Part shown: positions 29,331 through 54,740 of the stretch, piece after piece | How the letters are laid out: every line of letters starts with the position of its first letter | How positions within the stretch are numbered: position 1 is the first letter of the stretch | DNA from: a virus | DNA: 64,000 nucleotides | IMG/VR virus record: IMGVR_UViG_3300027857_000001 | Span: 71,302-135,301 of that record | Reading direction: 5' to 3' (one strand) | Notes under the pieces: generated by a model | Database searches by the model: none | Seen by the model: the letters and a program-made list of their open reading frames with translations, nothing else | Told to the model about the DNA's origin: nothing | Made by a program: the position numbers and the translations under genes

Positions 29331-30995
29331 GTGGCCCGAAGGCGCAAGACGGGGATGCGGGGCGGTGACCTGGTGCCTGCTCCTCCTGGCATGACCCTGG
29401 CCGAGCAGGAACTGGCGGCGCTCGAGGAGCTCACGGCGCTGAAGGCGAAACTCGCATCGGTGAGGGGCCGGGGGATCGCCCGGTACGTGCACGACCCGCT
29501 CGGGTTCGTCCAGAACGCGGTCAGGTTCAGGCCCGGCGGCGGCCTCGCCGCCTACCAGGCCGAGATCATCGCGGACCTGCCCCGGATGAGGCGGATAGCG
29601 GTCAGGGGACCGCGGGGGCTGGGCAAGAGCTGCCTGGTCTCCCTGATCGTCCTGTGGTTCGCGCTGACCCGCGACGCGGCGGGGACCGACTGGAAGATCT
29701 GCACCACTGCCGGGTCGTGGGCTCAGCTTGAGAGCTACCTGTGGCCTGAGATCGCGAAGTGGGCGAACAGCATCGACTGGGCCGTGATCGGCCGGGAGCC
29801 GCTCAGCCCCCGCAGTGAGCTGATGAGAACCCAGATGCGCCTGCGGCACGGCCTGGCCCTCTCCGCCTCCCCGGAGCGGCCCGACGTGATCGAGGGGCTT
29901 CACGGTGACAGCGTCCTCGTCGTGATCGACGAGGCGAAGATCGTCTCGCCGGGCATCTTCGACTCGATCGAGGGCGCGTTCTCCGGCGCGGGTGACGGCA
30001 GCGACCTCGAGGCGTACGCGCTCGCGTTCTCGACGCCTGGCGAGCCGTCAGGCCGGTTCTACGACATCCACACCCGCAAGCCCGGCCTGGAGGACTGGCA
30101 TGTCCGGCATGTCACCCTCGGCGAGGCGGTAGCGGCGGGCCGGATGACCATGTCGTGGGCGCGGCAGCGGAAGAAGCTGTGGGGCGAGACCAGCGCCCTG
30201 TACCAGAACCATGTCCTCGGCGAGTTCTGCGCTGACGATGAGGACGCCGTCATCCCCCTCGCGTGGGTGGAGGCGGCGTTCGAGCGATGGCGGGAGTGGG
30301 ACCGGGACGGCCGCCCGGACCAGGACGGCGTGAAAGCCGTCGGCGTCGACGTCGCCCGTTCCGGCACCGACCGGACCGTCGCCGCGGTCCGGCACGGCGA
30401 TGTGCTCACCGGGCTCGCCGACTGGGCGAAAGCAGACACGATGATCACGACGGGGCGGGTCAGGGGCATCCTGGAAGCAGACCCGGAAGCCACCGCGGTC
30501 GTCGACGTCATCGGCATCGGCGCTGGGGTCTACGACCGGCTCCGGGAGCAGGGCTGCCGCAGCGACCCGTTCAACGCGGGACGCAAGACCACGCGGCGTG
30601 ACAAGACAGGCCAGTTCGGGTTCTGCAATGTGCGGGCCGCGGCCTGGTGGAACCTGAGGGAACTGCTCGAGCCGCCGGCGTCCCGGCTCGCGATCTTCCC
30701 CGACGACCAGCTCGCGGGGGACCTCACCGCGATGCACTACAAGCACACCAGCGACGGGAAGATCCAGGTCGAGTCCAAGGACGACATCCGCAGGCGCATC
30801 GGCCGGTCCACCGACCGCGGCGACGCGGTCATGCAGGCGTTCTGGATGTCGGCCGGGTCGTGGGCCGACGCGTACGGCACCACCGGCTGCCCGGCCTGCG
30901 GCAGGTCGTTCATGAAGGAAGCAGACGGGAAGCTCCGGACGCACTGCCCGCACTGCCGGAAGCCGCTAGACGAGCCCGAGAGTGAGGTCGCATGA
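29331..30995 (+). CDS. terL: terminase large subunit
   Basis: Walker A GPRGLGKS, Walker B VVIDEAK, FSTP coupling motif, RNase H-like VGVDVARSGTD and STDRGDA. Confidence 0.92.
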   Translation: MARRRKTGMRGGDLVPAPPGMTLAEQELAALEELTALKAKLASVRGRGIARYVHDPLGFVQNAVRFRPGGGLAAYQAEIIADLPRMRRIAVRGPRGLGKSCLVSLIVLWFALTRDAAGTDWKICTTAGSWAQLESYLWPEIAKWANSIDWAVIGREPLSPRSELMRTQMRLRHGLALSASPERPDVIEGLHGDSVLVVIDEAKIVSPGIFDSIEGAFSGAGDGSDLEAYALAFSTPGEPSGRFYDIHTRKPGLEDWHVRHVTLGEAVAAGRMTMSWARQRKKLWGETSALYQNHVLGEFCADDEDAVIPLAWVEAAFERWREWDRDGRPDQDGVKAVGVDVARSGTDRTVAAVRHGDVLTGLADWAKADTMITTGRVRGILEADPEATAVVDVIGIGAGVYDRLREQGCRSDPFNAGRKTTRRDKTGQFGFCNVRAAAWWNLRELLEPPASRLAIFPDDQLAGDLTAMHYKHTSDGKIQVESKDDIRRRIGRSTDRGDAVMQAFWMSAGSWADAYGTTGCPACGRSFMKEADGKLRTHCPHCRKPLDEPESEVA

Positions 30996-36499: not shown

Positions 36500-39400
36500 A
36501 TGGCATCTCCTCAGGCCATCTTGCGTGCTGCCAAGGCTGTTCCCGGCGCCCGGCCGACACCGCCGCCCCAGGGTGCGAATATCGGCATCGGGCGGATCTC
36601 GCCGCTGGCGTGGGACCTGTCTGAGGATGCCGGATACGCCAGGGCCTATGCCCCTTTCATGCCCCGGCCTGCGAGAACCTTTACTTCCGGCGCCTTCGGG
36701 CCGTTCTCGCCTATCCTTCCTGTCCCTGTGGACGAGCCACCTCCGGGCGGCCAGCTTCCCGACCCGCGCCGCTTCGACTACCCCGTCGGCTGGAACCTCC
36801 CGACCATCCCCGGCCAGGACGGCTTCCGGATGGCCTCGTTCGCCGTGCTGGACACGGTCAGCCGCCTCTACTCCGTCGCGCGTACCTGCATCGAGCGGCG
36901 CAAGGCGGCCATTGTCGGCATGGACTGGGACATCGTCCCGACCCGGGAGGCATCCAAGGCGTATCAGGGTTCTCACTCGGCGATGCGCGACTTCGGGAAG
37001 CGCCGCGCTAAGGCTGTCGCGTTCTTCAACCAGCCAGACCGCGACTTCGACGACTTCGGCGGGTTCCTGTCTGCCCTGCTGGAACAGGTGTTCGTAAACG
37101 ACGCGATGTCGCTGCTGCTCAAGCCCGTGCGCGGCCGGGGCCTGCGCAAGGGCGTGCTCGGGTCAGACCTCGACTGCCTGGGGCTGGTTGACGGCAGCAC
37201 CATCAGACCGCTCCTGTCCCTGTCAGGCGGGCGGCCTCGTCCTCCCGCACCCGCCTGGCAGCAATTCCTGAAAGGCGTGCCCAGGTCCGATATCAGCGCG
37301 ATGCTGAGCGGCCAGGACATCGAGGACGCCGGGCTGACAGCCTACGCGGGACCGGCGTTCCGCACCGACCAGATGATCTACCGTCCCGTCGTCCCGCGTG
37401 TGAACTCCCCTTACGGGTTCAGCATGGTCGAGATGGCGCTGCTGGTCATCATGACCGGGCTGCGCAAGCAGGCGTACCAGGCCCAGTACTACGACGAGGG
37501 AACGGTCCCGGCGGTTTACCTCAGTCCCGGTGACACCAGTATCACGCCGAGCCAGATCCGGGAGCTTCAAGACGCTCTCAATGGCTTCGCCGGGGACCCG
37601 GCCTGGCACCACAAGATCATCGTCACGCCGCCCGGGACCACCATCCACCCGATGCGGCCCTCGCAGCTCGCCGACCAGTTCGACGAGGTCATCATGAGCC
37701 AGGTCGCGATGGTCTTCGACGTGGACCCGATCTCGCTCGGCCTGGTCCCCAACGTGTCCTCGACCGTCTCCCCGTTCGCCGCAAGGGAGATGGCGCAGGC
37801 CAGCCGCACCGTTCACGAGCGCACCAGCACGAAGCCGCTGCTGAAGTACCTGTGCTCCATCTTCAACGCGATCCTGCACCGAGTCCTCGGCCAGGACGAC
37901 ATGAAGTTCACGTTCGCCGGCATGGACGAGGCGGCGGACCAGGCGGCCGTCACGGACCTGCTGGTGAAGCAGGTCCAGAACGGCATCCGCAGTGTCGACG
38001 AGGCGCGGGAGGAACTGGAGCTGACCCCGTGGGGACTGCCGGAGACCTCAGGGCCGGTCGTGTTCACGCAGGCCGGCGTCATGCCGTTCGAGTGGGTTCC
38101 GGGGATGGCCGTCGCCCAGGCCGAGGGCGCCTCGGGGCCGTACAGCGGCGAGACGGCACCATCGACGAAGCCGGGCGGTCCGCACGGGGATACCCGGCCG
38201 CTCGGGGTTCATCACCCGCCGTCGTCGCGGCCGTGGACAGGCTCCCGTGACCTGCAGCACATCAGGCCGGACAGGCCGCCGTCCCGTGCGCCGGTACCGT
38301 CCGGCGCGGGACGCACCGGGCACACGCCGGCGCACTCGGCCGCGGAAGGGCACACCGCGGTGTCAAGGCAGGACGGCAGGGCGAAGGCTGTCAGGTCTGA
38401 GCTTGAAGCGCTGAGCAGGCACCTGCGCAAGGGCCGCGCCGTCTCGACGTGGGAGCCCCGCCACCTGTCCGGGCAGGTGATGGCGGTCATCGCCGAGGAT
38501 CTCACCAAGGGGCTCGGTGCCGACGAGGTCATCAGGGGCGCCATGACCGTCGCGCTGCCGCGTGGCGAGTACGAGCGGTCGGACAAGCCGGAGGGCGCTG
38601 CGGTCCCGGGGCATGAGCGGCGGATCGCCGGGGCGTTCGAGGACGCGGCCGCGCACGCCGGGCGGCTCGTAGCGCAGGCGCGGTCAGGGGAGCTGGCTCT
38701 CCCGGTGCCGGAGCTTGCCGCGAAGATCCTGTCGGTGCTCCGCGCCAGCCTCGGGCCGGTGCTGCGCGGCGTGCACCGGGACGCATGGGCAGCCGGGAAA
38801 GACGAGGCCGCCTCGGCGCTCCGGATCACGTCGGCCGGTGATGAGCAGGAGCGGGAAGCGTGGATCGCCTCGCAAGGGCGTGACTGGCTGGAGGCCGTCT
38901 GCCGCACCGCCGGACCGGAGCTTACCCGGCTGCTCGCGGCCCCCGGCCCGGTCACTGAGGATGCTGTGGCCGCCGTGCTGGGTGCCGGGCAGCGGCCGGC
39001 CCTGATCGCGTGCACGGAGACGGCGAGGGCACGGAACGCCGCTGCGCTCAGTGTCATGCAGCACGCCGGGGTGCAGCGGAAGCGGTGGTTGCCGGACGGC
39101 GGCAGTGTGTGCGCCGCGTGCCGGGCGAACGCGGAGCAGGGAGCAATCCCGCTTGCCGCCCCGTTCAGCTCCGGGGACGTCGCGGGGCCAGCGCACCCTG
39201 GCTGCTCCTGCGGCGTGGCCGCAGGACCGCGGGACGCGGCGAAGCTCGCCAGGCGCGCCGCTGACCTGAACGGCGAGGTCTGGTGGCCGCAGGGCTCATA
39301 CCCGTCCGGTCCGGCGGCGGGAGGCGGCGGCCGGATGGTCCCGGCGCATGACGCCGACGGCACCGAGTACCTCGTGCCCGGCGGGGTGCCGGGGATGACC

Positions 39401-40264
39401 GCAGGCGGCGAGCCGCCGCGCCAGGACGGAGACGGTCCCGGCCCGGTGACGGAGGACGCACCCGGCACGGTCAGCGCCGGGCGCGGCGACGTGCACACGC
39501 TGGGCGGCGGGACGGCAGGTCTGTACCGGGACCTGAGCGACCGGACGCACGCAGGCAGCCCGGACAGCGCCGATGACGCGGCATGGCCAGGAACCCGCGG
39601 CATCCCGCCGGGGCGCGATGCGTCGTGGCCGCTGCAGGGCTACATGGGCGGCTACTGGCCGCAGGGCGGCCACGGGACAGGGCAGTCACCGGGAACCAGT
39701 GCAGGCAGCGCAGACCGGGGCAGGGCACCCGGAGCGCACGGCAAGGCCGCATCCGGGTACGACCTGAGCCGGCGATCCGGGATGATCTCCCTCGACCTCC
39801 CGGCGGGACTCGTCAGGCCAGTGCCCGGCGGAGTCAGTGATCATCACGTCACGATCTGCTACCTAGGCAACGACGTGACAGATGAGCAGTTCGCGCTGGC
39901 CTGCCTCCGCGCCTCCGCCGCTGCCGCGCTCATGCCGGGCCCGCTGTGCGGTGTCATCTCCGGCCGCGGGACCTTCGAGCCGTCCGCCAGCAGCGACGGG
40001 AAGGTACCGGTGTGGGCCGGGGTGATGCTGCCCGGCGCGGAGATCCTGCGGGAAGCACTCGCGGACCTGTCCGCCAGCGAGTTCAGCCGGTGGCTCCCGC
40101 ACGTGACGCTGGCCTACCTGGACCCGGCGGACCCGCTGCCGGACCCGGTGACTCCTGTCCCGGTGACGTTCACGCACATCAGCGTGCACCGCGGTGGCGA
40201 CGTGGAACGGTTCGAGCTGGGCGTGCCGCTGACGCAGCGCGCCCTGGCCGGAGCCGCAGCATGA
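36500..40264 (+). CDS. portal protein fused to a MuF (head morphogenesis) domain and a C-terminal 2H phosphoesterase
   Basis: portal motifs (YGFSMVE, QVAMVFDVDPISLG, GIRSVDEAREELEL); MuF (TETARA..RKRW..CAAC..HPGCSC); 2H motifs HVTICY and PHVTLAY. Confidence 0.88.
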   Translation: MASPQAILRAAKAVPGARPTPPPQGANIGIGRISPLAWDLSEDAGYARAYAPFMPRPARTFTSGAFGPFSPILPVPVDEPPPGGQLPDPRRFDYPVGWNLPTIPGQDGFRMASFAVLDTVSRLYSVARTCIERRKAAIVGMDWDIVPTREASKAYQGSHSAMRDFGKRRAKAVAFFNQPDRDFDDFGGFLSALLEQVFVNDAMSLLLKPVRGRGLRKGVLGSDLDCLGLVDGSTIRPLLSLSGGRPRPPAPAWQQFLKGVPRSDISAMLSGQDIEDAGLTAYAGPAFRTDQMIYRPVVPRVNSPYGFSMVEMALLVIMTGLRKQAYQAQYYDEGTVPAVYLSPGDTSITPSQIRELQDALNGFAGDPAWHHKIIVTPPGTTIHPMRPSQLADQFDEVIMSQVAMVFDVDPISLGLVPNVSSTVSPFAAREMAQASRTVHERTSTKPLLKYLCSIFNAILHRVLGQDDMKFTFAGMDEAADQAAVTDLLVKQVQNGIRSVDEAREELELTPWGLPETSGPVVFTQAGVMPFEWVPGMAVAQAEGASGPYSGETAPSTKPGGPHGDTRPLGVHHPPSSRPWTGSRDLQHIRPDRPPSRAPVPSGAGRTGHTPAHSAAEGHTAVSRQDGRAKAVRSELEALSRHLRKGRAVSTWEPRHLSGQVMAVIAEDLTKGLGADEVIRGAMTVALPRGEYERSDKPEGAAVPGHERRIAGAFEDAAAHAGRLVAQARSGELALPVPELAAKILSVLRASLGPVLRGVHRDAWAAGKDEAASALRITSAGDEQEREAWIASQGRDWLEAVCRTAGPELTRLLAAPGPVTEDAVAAVLGAGQRPALIACTETARARNAAALSVMQHAGVQRKRWLPDGGSVCAACRANAEQGAIPLAAPFSSGDVAGPAHPGCSCGVAAGPRDAAKLARRAADLNGEVWWPQGSYPSGPAAGGGGRMVPAHDADGTEYLVPGGVPGMTAGGEPPRQDGDGPGPVTEDAPGTVSAGRGDVHTLGGGTAGLYRDLSDRTHAGSPDSADDAAWPGTRGIPPGRDASWPLQGYMGGYWPQGGHGTGQSPGTSAGSADRGRAPGAHGKAASGYDLSRRSGMISLDLPAGLVRPVPGGVSDHHVTICYLGNDVTDEQFALACLRASAAAALMPGPLCGVISGRGTFEPSASSDGKVPVWAGVMLPGAEILREALADLSASEFSRWLPHVTLAYLDPADPLPDPVTPVPVTFTHISVHRGGDVERFELGVPLTQRALAGAAA

Positions 40265-43889: not shown

Positions 43890-44096
43890 TCAGCCGGGGA
43901 ACATCCCGGCTGGGATGTCAATGGTCACATCCATGGCCGCGCCTCCCTGGACAACATCAGCGGCAACGAGGGTTCCCTCCATCGAACCGGAATCGCCTCG
44001 GACAGTAACTGACGCGCCGAGCTGACCGTCCAGGCATCTGGAAGCGAACAAGGTACCGCGTCCCGCCGGGATGCGAAGTGTCACTCTCTGGCTCAT
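43890..44096 (-). CDS. small hypothetical protein
   Basis: beta-rich 68 aa. Confidence 0.35.
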   Translation of the reverse strand: MSQRVTLRIPAGRGTLFASRCLDGQLGASVTVRGDSGSMEGTLVAADVVQGGAAMDVTIDIPAGMFPG

Positions 44097-44157
44097 TCCC
44101 CTTATTGTGGCACGCCCCCTCGGCGGTCACCTGCGCTCATGCCTGAGGAGGCTGCCC

Positions 44158-46914
44158 GTGGCCGCGACCCTCACCGCCGATCAGGAGCTGGCGTACTACT
44201 CGTTCCCGATCGACAAGTCGAAGACCGAGGAGACCGCTGAGATCAACCCGGCGGACGGCACCCCGGACCTGGTGGTGTGGGGCAAGGCCTCCGACGGGAG
44301 CCTCGACGGGGACCTGCAGGTGGTTGACCCCGAGTTCAGTGCGACGGCGATCCGGGACTGGTTCGACACCGGCGCCAACGTGCGCGTGCAGCACCAGGCC
44401 CAGCGTGATCCGGCCGGCAAGGGCATCCACATCGACGTGACACCTGACGGCACGTGGGTGAAGACCCGCGTCTCGGAACCAGTCGCCAAGCACCTGGTGC
44501 GCACTGGGGCGCTGAATGACTACAGCATCGGGATATCCCGCCCGGCGATCCTGCGCCGACACCCCGTCCTCGACCCTGAGGGCAAGGCGGTCAACGGGAT
44601 CATCACCGGCCGGAAGGACGGCCTCACCAGGATCAGCGAGATATCCCTGGTAGACAGAGGCTCGAACTACAATACGAAATTCGCCGTAGTGAAAGCGGCG
44701 GCGGACGGCAGCCCCGTGTACGTGGGCAAGGTCACCGGTCCAGGCAACATCGCCATCACGACCGCGTACGACGACGACCAGGACGGAACGGTGACCGTGG
44801 ACATCCCGAAGACCGCCACAGTCACGTTCTCCCCGTCCGACCTCGCCAAGCTCCTCGCCCACCGTGAGGAAGCCGAGCGCCGGCAGGCCGACGCGGCGAC
44901 AGTGAAGCGGGACTTCGACCGGAACGTCGGCGGAGGCACTGACCGGGACAAGCTCAAGGCGTCCGACTTCGTATTCCCCGAGACCCGCGACTTCCCTGTC
45001 GTAACTCCAGGCGACGTCTCCGACGCGGTATCAAGCTGGGGGAGGTACAAGGGCAAGCGGTCATTCGATGACTTCAAGAGGCTCCTCACGCGCCTCGCCC
45101 GCCGCAAGGGCGCTGAGTTCGCGACGGAGCTGCCCGAGGCGTGGAAGTCCCGCAAGGAGAAGAAGGCGGACAAGACGGCCACAGCCCCGGCAGTGCAGGC
45201 AGGCGAGACCAGCAACCCCGCAGCAGGCCACACCGCAGTCACCATCAAGACAGGAACGGCCGCACAGCAGGGGGACGACGACGACAAGGATGATGTCCTC
45301 CACCACCAGGACGGGCAGGACGACGACCCCGACACCGAGGCGGACGACATGGACAAGACCGCCGTGCCGGACGCCGTGAAACCGCCGAAGCCAGGGAAGG
45401 CCACCTGCCCGTCGTGCAGCGCCCGGTGCAAGCCGTCGTGCCGGTTCTGCCCCCAGTGCGGCGCGTCCATGACCGCCGAGAAGGCGTCGAAGCCGGTCCC
45501 GGACCAGGCGGCAGGCGAGGAAGGCCGGATCGACCCGGCACCCCCGCACCGCGAGCCGGACGGCCCCGCCATGGAGTCGCTAGAGCAGGACGCGCACATC
45601 GAGGACGGCGACGAGGCCGCCGAATACCGCGCGGCAGCCGCCCGCAAGGCCGCCGGCATACCGTACGACGCCGCGTGGATGCACGACCTGCTGTGCCCCG
45701 CCTACGACCCGGCGACCGCCCGCAAGTGCCACCCGCACGCCGGGCTGCCGCTGATCGACGAGGCGGCATGGCAGGCCAAGGCGCTGGAAGTCGCGGCGTC
45801 CGCGCCGCTCGAGCAGGCCCGCGAGGCGGCACTGCTGTGGCAGCACGCCCGCACAGTCAGGGCGCTGCCCGCCGACCTGGCCGGCGAGATCGCCGGGGAG
45901 GCACACAAGGCGTTCCGTGACGCCAACCCCGGCCCGGGACGCGCCCCGGTACCCGGCGAGATCCCCGCCGCCAGGTACGCGCGGCCGTACCTTACCGCCG
46001 GGCACGCCGCGCCGTCACCAGGCCACGACAGCCCGCACACCGCACCCGTCCAGCCAGGGCACATCTCGGCAGCGGACTTCCAGCGCGGGAACATCCAGGA
46101 AGGCCACGCCGCCGGCTCTCCCGGCAACCCGGCACAGCGGCCCGCACCGGTCCCCGCACCGGAAATCCCGGGCGTCCCGACGCGGGTCTACTACACGAAC
46201 GTGCAGCGGGACAACGCACGGCAGGCGATGACCGCCATGCATGACCACATCGCCCGCACCTTCCCCGACGTCTGCCCGATGGCGGCACCTGGGCAGATGG
46301 GCGAGCCAGGTGAGGGCGCACGGCCGGTACCCGCCGGAGCCGGCGGTCCCGTCCCGCACGATACCGCCGCCAAGCACGACGGCGAGCCGCACAGCACCGC
46401 CGCCGCCGACCGCGTCACCAGGCTCGAGCGCAGGCTCCGCAAGGCCCGCAAGGCCGCAGGCTACGACGTGACAGCAGCGAACATCCCCGGCGAGGCCGTG
46501 ACCCTGAAAGCCGCCGCCGGCCCCGACCTCGTCAAGGCGGTATCCGACGCCGTTGCTGACCTTCACGCCGAGCTTGCCAGCACCCGGGAGCGGATCACGC
46601 AGCAGGGTGACCTCATCGCCGGGCAGGCGAAGATCCTGAAGAAGCAGGCGAAGGCGATCGACGTGATCGCATCCCAGCCCGACCCGGCCGTCACCGCCTA
46701 CCGCGGCGTCGCCCTGGCAGGCAGCCCTAAGGCTTCGGCCGCCCCGGCGGGGCAGCCGACGATGGCCCAGCGTGCGGAGCACGCCAAGGCCGCAGTGTTC
46801 AACGAGATGTACGAGCGGTGGCGCAGCGCAGCCGGCCCCGATGACCGGGAGAACGCCTACGCCGCCATGACCGAGCTGGCCGGCCTCAACTTCGGGAATC
46901 CCATGAGCACCTAG
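44158..46914 (+). CDS. prohead (capsid maturation) protease with long scaffold-like C-terminus
   Basis: VWGKASDGSLDGDLQVVD, RVQH, DYSIG, EISLVD; CxxC zinc-ribbon pair; coiled-coil tail; GAGGAGG RBS. Confidence 0.85.
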   Translation: MAATLTADQELAYYSFPIDKSKTEETAEINPADGTPDLVVWGKASDGSLDGDLQVVDPEFSATAIRDWFDTGANVRVQHQAQRDPAGKGIHIDVTPDGTWVKTRVSEPVAKHLVRTGALNDYSIGISRPAILRRHPVLDPEGKAVNGIITGRKDGLTRISEISLVDRGSNYNTKFAVVKAAADGSPVYVGKVTGPGNIAITTAYDDDQDGTVTVDIPKTATVTFSPSDLAKLLAHREEAERRQADAATVKRDFDRNVGGGTDRDKLKASDFVFPETRDFPVVTPGDVSDAVSSWGRYKGKRSFDDFKRLLTRLARRKGAEFATELPEAWKSRKEKKADKTATAPAVQAGETSNPAAGHTAVTIKTGTAAQQGDDDDKDDVLHHQDGQDDDPDTEADDMDKTAVPDAVKPPKPGKATCPSCSARCKPSCRFCPQCGASMTAEKASKPVPDQAAGEEGRIDPAPPHREPDGPAMESLEQDAHIEDGDEAAEYRAAAARKAAGIPYDAAWMHDLLCPAYDPATARKCHPHAGLPLIDEAAWQAKALEVAASAPLEQAREAALLWQHARTVRALPADLAGEIAGEAHKAFRDANPGPGRAPVPGEIPAARYARPYLTAGHAAPSPGHDSPHTAPVQPGHISAADFQRGNIQEGHAAGSPGNPAQRPAPVPAPEIPGVPTRVYYTNVQRDNARQAMTAMHDHIARTFPDVCPMAAPGQMGEPGEGARPVPAGAGGPVPHDTAAKHDGEPHSTAAADRVTRLERRLRKARKAAGYDVTAANIPGEAVTLKAAAGPDLVKAVSDAVADLHAELASTRERITQQGDLIAGQAKILKKQAKAIDVIASQPDPAVTAYRGVALAGSPKASAAPAGQPTMAQRAEHAKAAVFNEMYERWRSAAGPDDRENAYAAMTELAGLNFGNPMST

Positions 46915-46973: not shown

Positions 46974-49900
46974 ATGGCTGCAACCCTCGAGGCGGACCTG
47001 CTCAGCGCAGCGCCTCTCAAGAGCGCCGGCAATACGGCGCTCAACCCGGACGGCCTGACCCAGGCGCTGTACGGCGACGCCGCACAGCCGTTCCAGGGAC
47101 ACACGGCCGCACGCCACTCCACGACCGGCGACGCCATCAAGTCCGCGATGCCCGACCTCGTCAAGGGCGCCGGCCTCGCCCGCAGGGGCGGCAACACCCC
47201 CCTGACCGATTCCCGCGACATCGCGCTCCGCGCCCACCAGGCAACCCTGGACCTGCGCGGCGAGGTGGCCCGCGGGTACAGCGCCCGCTCCGAGGTGGTG
47301 AAGTCCGGATTCAGTTCCGGCTTCCTCAACCAGTTCGGAGCGCTCCGTACAGCGCTGATGACCCCGTCCATCGGCGAGCAGATCGCGCAGGTGTTCGCCA
47401 ACCTGCCGGGCGGAGCCGAGGCTCTGTCCAAGTCATTCACGGCCGGGAACCTTGGTCTCGGATCTATATTCGGTTTTGTGCCATTCGATCTCCTCGCGCC
47501 TTCCGTCTGAGGGCCGCCGCACCGCGAGGTGCGGATGACAACTCCGAGAATTGCTGGGAAGCCCGCGCCACCTGGCCAGGCCACAACGCGGGGCGAAAGC
47601 CCGGACGTGACGGCCTGAGAACTGGCCAGTCCCAGGGGTCATCAGCAGCCGAGCTTCTAAGGGCACCACGTGCCTACGAAGAAGGTTCACAGACCATGCA
47701 CGGAGCACCTCACTGAGGTGAAGATATGGTCGGGACCCGCAGCGAGAGCGCGGGAGCCAGGCGGAAACGATCTGGCCCGGCAGCAGGACCGGTAACAAGT
47801 CGTCACGGCTTATCTACCCTGTGTACACCCTCGGCGATTAGGGGGCCCTGCGGAGCGATCCGCAGGTTAACACCGCACTGCCCGGGGAACCCCTCCAGAG
47901 CGACTGGGGAATCCCGGTCCGCCACGATGCCCGTGGCGGCGTAGAGACTGTACGTGCGGGCTCTGCGATCAGCGTGCCCACGGGGCATCACCTGCGCACG
48001 CCAGCAGAGCATGAGACAGTCCGAGCCTGCAGGAAGGCAAACTGCAGGAGGCGCGCGGAAACGACGCGCCCGCCCGCTCAGCCGAGCGGGACGTAACAAG
48101 CCAACTGCTACCGCAACAAGTTCCCGCGCCCGGCTGGCCAGGGCGCCAGCCGCATCGAGCGGCTCGTCCTGGGGATCTCCGGTTCCCAGACCGGTGGCCA
48201 GGGCGTCCTGGACATCTCCCTCCCGGAACTGGTGCAGTCCGGCGGCACGTTCTCCAACTGGCCGCTTAACCTGCCCCCAGCCGGGTCACAGGCATCGACC
48301 ACGCTCAATGTCCCTTACCGCTTCCTTGGCGTGACCGAGGAGCTGTCCTGGCTCGCGCAGTTCGCCGGGCAGGGCTATGAGGACATAAGCGCCCTAAACT
48401 TACCTGGGGCCCAGCATGGCGACATGCTGGTGAGAACCCTGCTGTATCGGTGAAAGCCCTTCGTCTAGATGCGATATCCTCGTATCTATGGGTAACGCCG
48501 AGGCAACCCGGCCCGCAGCCGGAGAGTCCGTAGAGGCCATACGCAGGGGATCTGACGAGCCGGAACATTCTCATGCGGACTGCGGCACTGCCCGCCAGCC
48601 GGCGAGCACCAAGGTCATCAACACGCCGCATGAGGTCATGTTCCATCAGGCACTAACCCGCGCCCGCCTCAGCTTCGAGACACAGTCTCACCCAGCTGGC
48701 GACAGGTACGAAGCGGATATCGAGCTACTGCAGAAGCCGATCGTCATCGAGGTGACGAACAGTCCCGGCGAGAAACGAGCGGCCGGCCGGCGCGAGCGCA
48801 AGACGGCCGCACTGGAAGCCGCAGGTTACCGGGTCTACTGGTTCAGCAACCATCAGGCGCGCACCAACCCCGATGCCGCAGTGCAGCGGGTAATGCGGGA
48901 AAACGGCCTCCGCCAGGAGGAAGCGCCTACCGTCCTGATCCGGCCGAACCGGACCGGTCATGCTGGCCAGCTCAACCCGAACTGGGGCGGCGGCCCAGCG
49001 GCAGCAGTGTGCGAGCAATGCGGTTCGCTGGTCGCATCCAGGCGCCGCAATGGCGGCAGGATCGCCCGCTTCTGCAACTCGAAGTGCTACGGGAAGTGGA
49101 TGCACGAGCATCCGGAGACAGTCAACAACAAGCGCCCTATGCCCCCGATGCCCGATCTTGCGGATCGGTACGGCGCGGGAATGTCCGCGCAGCAGGTGGC
49201 TGACTCCTACGGCGTGAGCCGTGCCTACATCATGCAGGAGATGCGCAGACGCGGCATTCCCCTGCGGCCAGCGGGCGGTTACCGTCCTCGTGGCGGCTTC
49301 CGGGCCACAGGCACCCTTCCCGGCTCGCAAAATGTCAGATCGTGACATGGTCCGACCCGCGACCGATGACAAAGGCGCGGAGCTAGGCGGAACAGAAACG
49401 GCCTAGCCATCCTGTCCGGAATCGCTCCGACCGGACAAGATGTAACAAAAGTGGGCAAACCTCATCATGCTCCAGGAGCAGATGCTCGGCGAGGAATACC
49501 AGCTCATCTGCGGCTCGTCCGCGAACCTCGCCGCGCCCGCCGCGCCTACGGTGACAGCACGGACGGCGGGCTCCAACGAGACCGCGATCGGGTCGAACGC
49601 CAACTACGCGGTCGTGGTGACCGCGACGAACTGGTTCGGCGAGACCGTGGCATCCTCCGCCGCGACCGTGTCTGGCGGCACTGGCGCCTCCCAGGTCGTG
49701 GACGTCACCATCGCCCCCTCGGTGGGTGCGATGAACTACAACATCTACGTCTCCACCAACGGCACCCCGGCCCGGACGAACGAGTACCTCGTCGCATCCC
49801 AGGTCGGGGGGATCAGGTACACCATCCAGGGCGCGGCGCCGACGTCCGGCACCAACCCGCCGGCCGCTGACACCGGGACCGGGAAGAACACCCGGATCGA

Positions 49901-50513
49901 GGGCGTCATCCCGACGCTCACCGGCCTGTCCGCGTCGGGCGGCGTGTACCCGACGTCGCCGGTCAACTGGCAGGGCGGCTACGTCAACCAGGCGGTCGGC
50001 ACCCACCTGTCTTACAACGCCATCTACACGGCGCTGAAGAACCTGTGGCAGACCACCTCGAACAACCCTGGCGCGTTCAAGGCCGACCCGGCCGAGCTGA
50101 TCTCGTCCGGAATCGACATCGCCAACCTGTCCCAGGACGTCATCAGCCAGGGTCAGGGAACCAACTACGAGCTGTTCATCCAGCAGTCCCAGGTCGGTGA
50201 CGTCACCGTCGGGGCTGCGGTGAGCCAGTTCCAGAACCCGCTCACCAGGAGCATCCTCAAGCTCGTCGTCCACCCCTGGTACACCCAGGGCAACGCCGAG
50301 CTGCTCTCCTACCAGCTCCCCCAGACGTGGACCAATGTGGCGAACGCCTGGGAAATGACGATGGTCCAGGACTACGTGAGTATTGCGTGGCCAGTCATTG
50401 ACGCTACGTATCGCTACAGTTTGTTCGAATTCGGGGCTCTAGTTGCGTCTGCGCCTTTCTACAGCGCGCATCTCGGCGGCCTGCAGAACTCGGATAGCTC
50501 GCCGTTCTCCTGA
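46974..50513 (+). CDS. major capsid protein, spliced: join(46974..47501,47803..47831,48108..48395,49454..50513), 634 aa
   Basis: joined 1905 nt is one frame: ...FDLLAP|SRLIYPVYT(L|)YRNKFPR...EDISA(L|)ANLIMLQE...; position after the protease; FN3-like insertion in exon 4. Confidence 0.88.
47502..47802 (+). ncRNA. group I intron 1 (301 nt, no ORF)
   Basis: P AATTGCTGGGAA 47549, Q ATCAGCAG 47641, R GTTCACAGACCA 47685, S AAGATATGGTC 47721; P3 CTCCG/CGGAG; P1 GCCU/GGGC; terminal G. Confidence 0.9.
47832..48107 (+). ncRNA. group I intron 2 (276 nt, no ORF)
   Basis: R GTAGAGACTG 47941, S ATGAGACAGTCC 48011 (P7 GACTG/CAGTC); P3 CCGCAC/GTGCGG; P8 GCTCTGC/GCAGAGC; P1 CCCU/GGGG; terminal G. Confidence 0.88.
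48396..49453 (+). ncRNA. group I intron 3 (1058 nt) with ORF in the P8 loop
   Basis: P1 GCCCU/GGGGC; P3 CCCTGC/GCAGGG; R GTAGAGGCCAT 48530; P8 GATCTGAC 48549/GTCAGATC 49334; S GTGACATGGTCC 49342; terminal G. Confidence 0.9.
48488..49345 (+). CDS. intron-encoded Vsr/DUF559-like endonuclease with Zn-finger and HTH (start uncertain)
   Basis: TPHE...FETQ..RYEADI..IVIEV..GYRVYWFSN; CEQCG..FCNSKC; C-terminal HTH. Confidence 0.75.
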   Translation: MGNAEATRPAAGESVEAIRRGSDEPEHSHADCGTARQPASTKVINTPHEVMFHQALTRARLSFETQSHPAGDRYEADIELLQKPIVIEVTNSPGEKRAAGRRERKTAALEAAGYRVYWFSNHQARTNPDAAVQRVMRENGLRQEEAPTVLIRPNRTGHAGQLNPNWGGGPAAAVCEQCGSLVASRRRNGGRIARFCNSKCYGKWMHEHPETVNNKRPMPPMPDLADRYGAGMSAQQVADSYGVSRAYIMQEMRRRGIPLRPAGGYRPRGGFRATGTLPGSQNVRS

Positions 50514-54068: not shown

Positions 54069-54740
54069 ATGGGCATGATCGTTGGGCAGGTCTTCGGCCG
54101 CTGGACCGTACTGGAAGACAGCGGCGGAGCGAAGGTAGCATGCCGTTGCGCCTGCGGCACGGAGCGCGGCGTAAGCAGGTATTCCCTGGCCACAGGCCAT
54201 TCCAGGTCGTGCGGATGCTACAGCCGGGAAGCTGCGAGCGCGCGGGCTCGCGCACAGGTCAAGCATCCGGTGAGCAAAGGTGACACGTTCGGGCGCTGGC
54301 TGGTTCTCGACGCCTCCGACCGTGCCGCAGTCAAAGTCCGCTGTGAGTGCGGCGAGATGCGAGCGGTACCCGCCTCGCATCTGGTCCTGGGCGCGTCAAG
54401 GTCCTGCGGGTGCTGGAAGGCAGAGGAACTGTCGCTGCAGCCGCATGGGACGAAGCACGGGATGGGCCGCCACCCGCTGTACAGCACCTGGCATCACATG
54501 GTCCGGCGGTGTACGGACCCCGGCGACAGAGCCTGGCATAACTACGGTTTCCGAGACATCAGGATCTACGGCCCGTGGTTCGATGTCGCACGGTTCATCG
54601 AGTACATCGAGCATGAGCTCGGCCCGCGGCCAGATGGCCTGACGATCGACCGGATCAACAACGACGGGCACTACGAGCCGGGAAATGTCCGGTGGGCGAC
54701 ACGCGCGGAGCAGAACCGCAACCAGCGCCGGCGGCAGTGA
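54069..54740 (+). CDS. free-standing HNH homing endonuclease
   Basis: FGRWTV..CRCACG..SCGC repeated twice; TIDRINNDGHYEPGNVRWAT..QNRN. Confidence 0.9.
   Translation: MGMIVGQVFGRWTVLEDSGGAKVACRCACGTERGVSRYSLATGHSRSCGCYSREAASARARAQVKHPVSKGDTFGRWLVLDASDRAAVKVRCECGEMRAVPASHLVLGASRSCGCWKAEELSLQPHGTKHGMGRHPLYSTWHHMVRRCTDPGDRAWHNYGFRDIRIYGPWFDVARFIEYIEHELGPRPDGLTIDRINNDGHYEPGNVRWATRAEQNRNQRRRQ

Follow-up and report, generated by a model that had tools for sequence, protein, structure and literature searches.

Group I introns have been described in capsid and tail genes of several viruses. The splicing of the capsid intron of Mycobacterium phage LittleE was shown by reverse transcription PCR and N-terminal protein sequencing (Pope et al. 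2013, PMC3706429), and this intron has a relative without an open reading frame (ORF) in the BAKA/Optimus tail gene (PMC3706429). The gene orf142 of Staphylococcus phage Twort contains three introns and a 23-nt exon and undergoes exon skipping (Landthaler and Shub 1999, as reviewed in PMC10136302 and PMC11878797). A capsid gene of the crAss-like Zeta group lies in five fragments (Yutin et al. 2021, PMC7886860), group I introns also occur in capsid genes of giant viruses, for example Faustovirus (PMC6247863), and in the Bastillevirinae up to three such introns occur per phage gene (PMC11878797). Here, we analyze a 64,000-nt stretch of viral DNA (positions 71,302 to 135,301 of the IMG/VR record IMGVR_UViG_3300027857_000001; hereafter the window), in which an initial annotation had proposed a major capsid gene split by three group I introns. 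Its remark that phage introns reside mostly in nucleotide-metabolism genes is broadly true, but overlooks the capsid and tail cases of LittleE, Twort, and the Zeta group. We conclude that the window very probably contains a single HK97-fold capsid gene, which mobile group I introns from the family to which the LittleE intron belongs have entered on three occasions.

Among the ORFs of the window are frames of 178 aa (46974-47510) and 348 aa (49467-50513), and when four exons (46974-47501, 47803-47831, 48108-48395, and 49454-50513) are joined, they form one reading frame of 1905 nt and 634 aa, with its sole stop at the end. All four exons and the three inserts lie on the + strand. Exon 1 (46974..47501; 528 nt, aa 1-176) is preceded by a GGGAGG ribosome-binding site, ends in T, and is collinear with its homologues up to ...FDLLAP. 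Exon 2 (47803..47831) is a micro-exon of only 29 nt, which encodes SRLIYPVYT plus 2 nt, a peptide that is near-invariant among 19 homologues. Exon 3 (48108..48395) has 288 nt, and exon 4 (49454..50513), which has 1060 nt including the stop codon, matches PHROG 13692. A search with exon 4 retrieved more than 100 uninterrupted proteins of 617-653 aa. When the spliced 634-aa protein was aligned with 19 sampled uninterrupted homologues, it was collinear with them, with zero gaps at all three junctions, and the junction peptides (APSRLIYPVYT, YTL-RNK, and EDISALANL) were near-invariant. The protein alignment alone lets each junction slide by 1-2 bases; a U before and a G at the end of each insert are obtained solely with the junctions placed by the initial annotation (exon-final T at 47501, 47831, and 48395; intron-final G at 47802, 48107, and 49453). 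In other words, its account of a capsid ORF that stops at 47510 and resumes at 49467, of a 29-nt exon, and of a 634-aa frame restored by removing 47502-47802, 47832-48107, and 48396-49453 was exact to the base.

Searches of the capsid gene itself gave little functional information: Pfam returned no family for any of the exons, PHROGs matched only a function-unknown family, and a profile of the capsid family found nothing convincing among the PDB sequences. A tblastn search against cultured phages yielded one distant match, in a Thermoanaerobacterium phage, for exon 4 and none for exon 1. However, when the AlphaFold model (predicted local distance difference test score, pLDDT, 76) of the uninterrupted homologue P0001, which is 77% identical to the window protein over exon 4, was submitted to Foldseek, it matched the capsid proteins of SPO1, Pa223, SU10, T5, and HK97, with E values down to 3e-12. 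The gene is also located downstream of those for the large terminase subunit (29331-30995) and the portal protein (36500-40264). Judged from the modelled fold of this homologue and from gene position, the interrupted gene is an HK97-fold major capsid gene, as the initial annotation had assumed. No second capsid copy was found in the 135-kb genome. The conservation percentile of the insertion sites is mildly above average, a value that depends on rough mapping and on which we do not rely.

All the structural elements of a group I intron could be placed in each of the three inserts. Intron 1 (47502..47802; 301 nt) has no ORF and belongs to a type with a long P4-P6 domain; its guide sequence GGGC is at 47511-14, P2 at 47517-34, P7 at 47692-97/47726-31, and P9.1 at 47756-76, and its tail is TAACAAGTCG. 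Intron 2 (47832..48107; 276 nt), also without an ORF, is of the short P4-P6 type, with the guide GGGG at 47841-44, P2 at 47847-66, P3 at 47873-78/47954-59, P7 at 47946-51/48016-21, P8 at 47960-48010, P9 at 48026-48, and P9.1 at 48050-70. Intron 3 (48396..49453; 1058 nt) has the guide GGGGC at 48406-10, P2 at 48411-30, P7 at 48535-40/49347-52, P9.1 at 49382-407, and the tail TAACAAAAGTG, and its P8 stem (48549-56/49334-41), a perfect 8 bp, closes a loop that bears an endonuclease ORF. The guides lie directly 5' of P2, and each complements its own exon end. The P7 pairs are GACCAT/ATGGTC in intron 1, GACTGT/ACAGTC in intron 2, and GGCCAT/ATGGTC in intron 3, so that the P7 pairings reported in the initial annotation were all found. 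The exon frame runs into a stop 9, 10, and 58 nt inside introns 1, 2, and 3, respectively, that of intron 1 being TGA, and introns 2 and 3 start in codon phase 2.

The architecture of the inserts was examined with an alignment of seven ORF-less inserts, including intron 2 of the window, with a mean column identity of 61%. These fold into P2, P3, P4, P5, P6, P8, P9, and P9.1, with P7 forming the expected pseudoknot with P3. Paired cells make up 94% of the alignment, against 34-42% when the partners are slid by 1-3 columns; compensatory changes are seen at 51 of 73 pairs, including three of the six P7 pairs, and none of 500 shuffles attained the observed values. The covariance model built from these seven inserts (R1) gave 262.6 bits with intron 2, which is one of its training sequences. 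Introns 1 and 3 were outside the training set, and the model matched intron 1 (31.8 bits, E 3e-8) as well as both the 5' part of intron 3 (48388-48693; 43.6 bits, E 6e-12) and its 3' part (49342-49407; 32.4 bits). R1 gave no match beyond the three inserts in the window or in the remainder of the 135-kb genome, and the agreement of its matches with the inserts far exceeds chance. The same model recognizes the LittleE capsid intron with 111 bits (E 8e-35). On the basis of their shared predicted architecture and of these matches, all three inserts belong to a single family of group I introns, and this is the LittleE/cluster J intron family.

To place the introns in context, we surveyed 80 IMG/VR loci and one Joint Genome Institute (JGI) contig that encode homologues of the capsid protein. 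The gene is interrupted in about a quarter of them, at many different codons. The insertion sites (in window protein numbering) include 161, ~170, 176, ~181, 183, 185.7, 255, ~262, 281.7, 285, 290.7, 294, ~590, 605, and ~632. The family occupies at least 15 sites in the capsid gene; individual genes carry anything from no intron to five or more, and exons of 8-44 nt occur between or after them. In 17 of 19 gaps, exactly one of the equally collinear boundaries has a U at the exon end and a G at the intron end. In 15 of 16 introns, the 4-5 nt that immediately precede P2 are complementary to the end of that intron's 5' exon, compared with 17% for exons of other sites, and the guide varies with the insertion site (CCCU/GGGG, CCGU/GCGG, CCAU/GUGG, GCCU/GGGC, and CGGU/GCCG); at site 294, the guide pairing is 7 bp long and includes a C-G to G-C swap. 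When the exon frame is followed into the intron, it meets a stop within the first four codons in 15 of 20 cases (introns 1 and 2 of the window are among them, intron 3 is not), as against 15% in the other two frames.

Relatives whose capsid proteins are 60-80% identical are either intronless or have introns at other sites. Orthologues of intron 2 occupy the identical site in L076, L072, and L032, and L093, an independent contig from another sample, has introns at all three window sites, including an orthologue of intron 3, with the identical micro-exon between introns at the same two sites and a fourth intron after a 27-nt exon (L093:7660-7690). L100 has at least five introns within its last 380 codons. 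Near the 3' end of its capsid homologue (L100:2600-3600; also in L092), three full-length introns stand in tandem, with exons of 44 nt, ~83 nt, and a final ~8 nt (two codons and the stop). Other micro-exons between family introns measure ~16 nt (L031:130-175) and ~28 nt (L072:7333-7360). At sites 176 and 255, introns share a common guide sequence but have either a long or a short P4-P6 domain, which suggests module exchange or repeated invasion. The two types can be compared at one site in window 47502-47802 versus L020:3264-4607, and in L061:6727-7516 versus L064:4807-6000; the long type carries GAGAATTGCTGG... R1 was also run over ~1 Mb of flanking phage DNA, where it detected no copy of the family beyond the capsid gene. 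In IMG/VR, 12 loci contain an exact 17-nt core motif; 11 of them are homologues of the window capsid gene, and no capsid match was found for the twelfth.

Many of the related capsid introns contain a gene for a DUF559 or LAGLIDADG endonuclease. The ORF of intron 3 (48488..49345, + strand; at most 285 aa, with an in-frame ATG at 48638 inside the P8 loop) comprises a DUF559 nuclease domain (25 bits with Pfam DUF559, cut-off 20.6), a Cys-rich stretch, and a C-terminal helix-turn-helix, and its stop codon falls partly within J8/7. Homologous ORFs, likewise on the sense strand, are found in six further introns of capsid genes (sites 176, 185.7, and 255), and the window ORF keeps the invariant residues D77 and E88. 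The site-294 introns carry antisense LAGLIDADG genes (L065:2358-3140 (-) and L075:6482-7408 (-)), and this orientation is that of the endonuclease ORF of the LittleE capsid intron.

These features can be combined into a proposed mechanism. Within the late pre-mRNA, each intron would fold into its ribozyme, and the 4-5-nt guide just 5' of P2 would pair with the exon end through a U.G wobble. A free guanosine bound at P7 would attack the 5' exon-intron bond, the freed exon would then attack the bond after the terminal G of the intron, and the three excisions together would restore the 634-aa frame. The early in-frame stops of introns 1 and 2 would halt ribosomes short of the ribozyme core. In T4 introns, ribosomes need to be kept out of the ribozyme core, and by analogy, the early stops fit such a need. 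Intron 3 would bear its DUF559-type homing endonuclease gene in the P8 loop, and introns 1 and 2 may have lost such a gene or never had one. Because the genome has no second capsid copy, all three excisions are needed; the initial annotation had said as much, on the ground of an in-frame stop in intron 1.

How firmly can this reading be held? It stands on direct observations: the exon structure, the covarying RNA architecture, the membership of one intron family, the presence of a single capsid gene, and the patchy distribution among relatives. The splicing activity of the three introns and their homing are inferred from these, as is the activity of the intron 3 endonuclease, which is uncertain. 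Several points weigh on the other side. The splicing of the window introns is predicted from DNA sequence, and P1 is short (4-5 bp). The searches with group I models were divided: R1, built from relatives, matches all three inserts, but in Rfam only intron 1 has a match, end-to-end to RF00028 Intron_gpI with 42.8 bits (E 5e-9); this is lower than the gathering score of 50, which is a curated cut-off and not a structural definition. Introns 2 and 3 have no Rfam match. Nothing in the whole window reached a gathering score, a permissive Rfam search of intron 2 alone gave chance matches only, and no cultured phage matched introns 1 and 2 in a blastn search. Moreover, the intron 3 endonuclease may be inactive, because, unlike its relatives, it has no N-terminal helix-turn-helix region and reads EVTN at the position of their EADG. 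This degenerate appearance would suit a capsid gene that is the decaying pseudogene of a defective element, broken by dead insertions. We consider this very unlikely, because the record is a complete genome with terminal repeats, its capsid exons are both intact and conserved, the conserved ribozyme core shows compensatory changes, and the same three sites are occupied in L093. That the source is a single metagenome assembly might raise the suspicion of a chimera, yet orthologous introns lie at identical sites of independent contigs, and group II introns find no more support, since Rfam yields no other intron family over the region; such explanations are exceedingly improbable. Inteins were ruled out by stops in all frames of introns 1 and 2, and the exon frame stops inside all three inserts.

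The initial annotation had gone further and suggested that the introns act as a timing or stress-sensitive checkpoint on virion assembly. If the three introns were retained for this purpose, the dependence of capsid output on three ribozyme reactions would be its basis, and splicing fidelity would matter, as skipping of the 29-nt exon would shift the frame. However, relatives with 60-80% identical capsids manage without introns or with introns elsewhere, endonuclease genes reside within many introns of the family, and no regulatory element was found; we therefore regard a checkpoint as very unlikely and do not retain the suggestion. Patchy presence, many sites, endonuclease genes, and ORF-less copies together indicate a homing-intron life cycle, and the evidence points to selfish homing, rather than a conserved regulatory device, as the explanation of the distribution.

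The window gene therefore adds one more case to a known kind of mobile intron, and the three-intron capsid case itself is well supported. As a speculation that we doubt more than we believe, one intron family may have spread through the capsid gene alone in a clade of large high-G+C soil phages, its endonucleases serving as weapons that cleave the essential capsid gene of co-infecting intron-free relatives. The endonuclease of a PhiPA3 intron has been reported as such a weapon in co-infection (PMC11620839). If this were true, the introns would be selected in phage-phage competition and would not be purely parasitic. On the practical side, gene callers fragment this capsid gene, and the annotation of such phages needs intron-aware models. 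The related genes also offer a natural series for studying how a 4-nt guide chooses a site, how small an exon between ribozymes can be, and how endonucleases are gained and lost.

The record from which the window was taken is 135,301 bp long, has direct terminal repeats, is rated complete, and has a G+C content of 70%; it belongs to a soil phage whose host is probably an actinomycete. Among the sequencing runs listed for this genome, none is of RNA, and the only one that contains it in full is a run of soil DNA, possibly from the source sample itself. A 3-kb contig binned to a Streptosporangiaceae metagenome-assembled genome contains a capsid homologue with an ORF-bearing family intron (L088:431-1723), which we take as a weak lead to the host. 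Among the neighboring genes of the window, the portal protein (36500-40264) has 1254 aa, and its extra C-terminal regions match PHROG families named for minor-head (MuF-like) proteins and for RNA ligase. The protein encoded at 44071-46914 (947 aa), between the portal region and the capsid gene, has a zinc-ribbon as its only match; from its position, it may be a scaffold or protease. At 54069-54740, amid structural genes, lies a free-standing gene for an HNH endonuclease (phrog_374, E 2e-61). The ORFs adjoining the terminase gene were checked for a split terminase and had no family matches.

Compared with the systems described above, the window gene shares with the Zeta-group and Faustovirus genes a capsid gene in four or five pieces and group I introns with endonuclease genes. 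Those genes belong to other phage lineages and hosts and are likened to ours from their published descriptions; their introns were recognized mainly through endonuclease domains, whereas those of the window were recognized through RNA covariation. The Bastillevirinae introns differ in interrupting genes other than the capsid gene, namely those for DNA polymerase, terminase, and ribonucleotide reductase. Twort orf142 likewise has three group I introns in a late structural gene and a micro-exon between two of them, but that gene encodes a tail tube protein, its introns are of subgroup IA2, and the phage is low in G+C. Exon skipping was demonstrated in Twort, whereas skipping of exon 2 in the window gene would shift the frame. 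LittleE is a high-G+C actinophage, as the window phage probably is, and both have an interrupted capsid gene. In the introns of both, the guide lies directly 5' of P2, whose loop is of the GNRA type, the loop of P9.1 is GAAAUGA, and a GTAACA tail precedes the terminal G. In LittleE, the guide GCCACC, directly 5' of P2, pairs with GGUGGU, and the 3' end is GAGTAACAAGGGACG. However, LittleE has one capsid intron where the window gene has three, and its endonuclease ORF lies antisense after P9.1, in contrast to the sense-strand, DUF559-type ORF in P8 of the window. The capsid proteins of LittleE and the window show no detectable sequence similarity, and the intron family has therefore passed from one structural gene to another that is unrelated to it. 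With the window introns, the LittleE family, which has been validated by experiment, now extends to uncultured soil phages.

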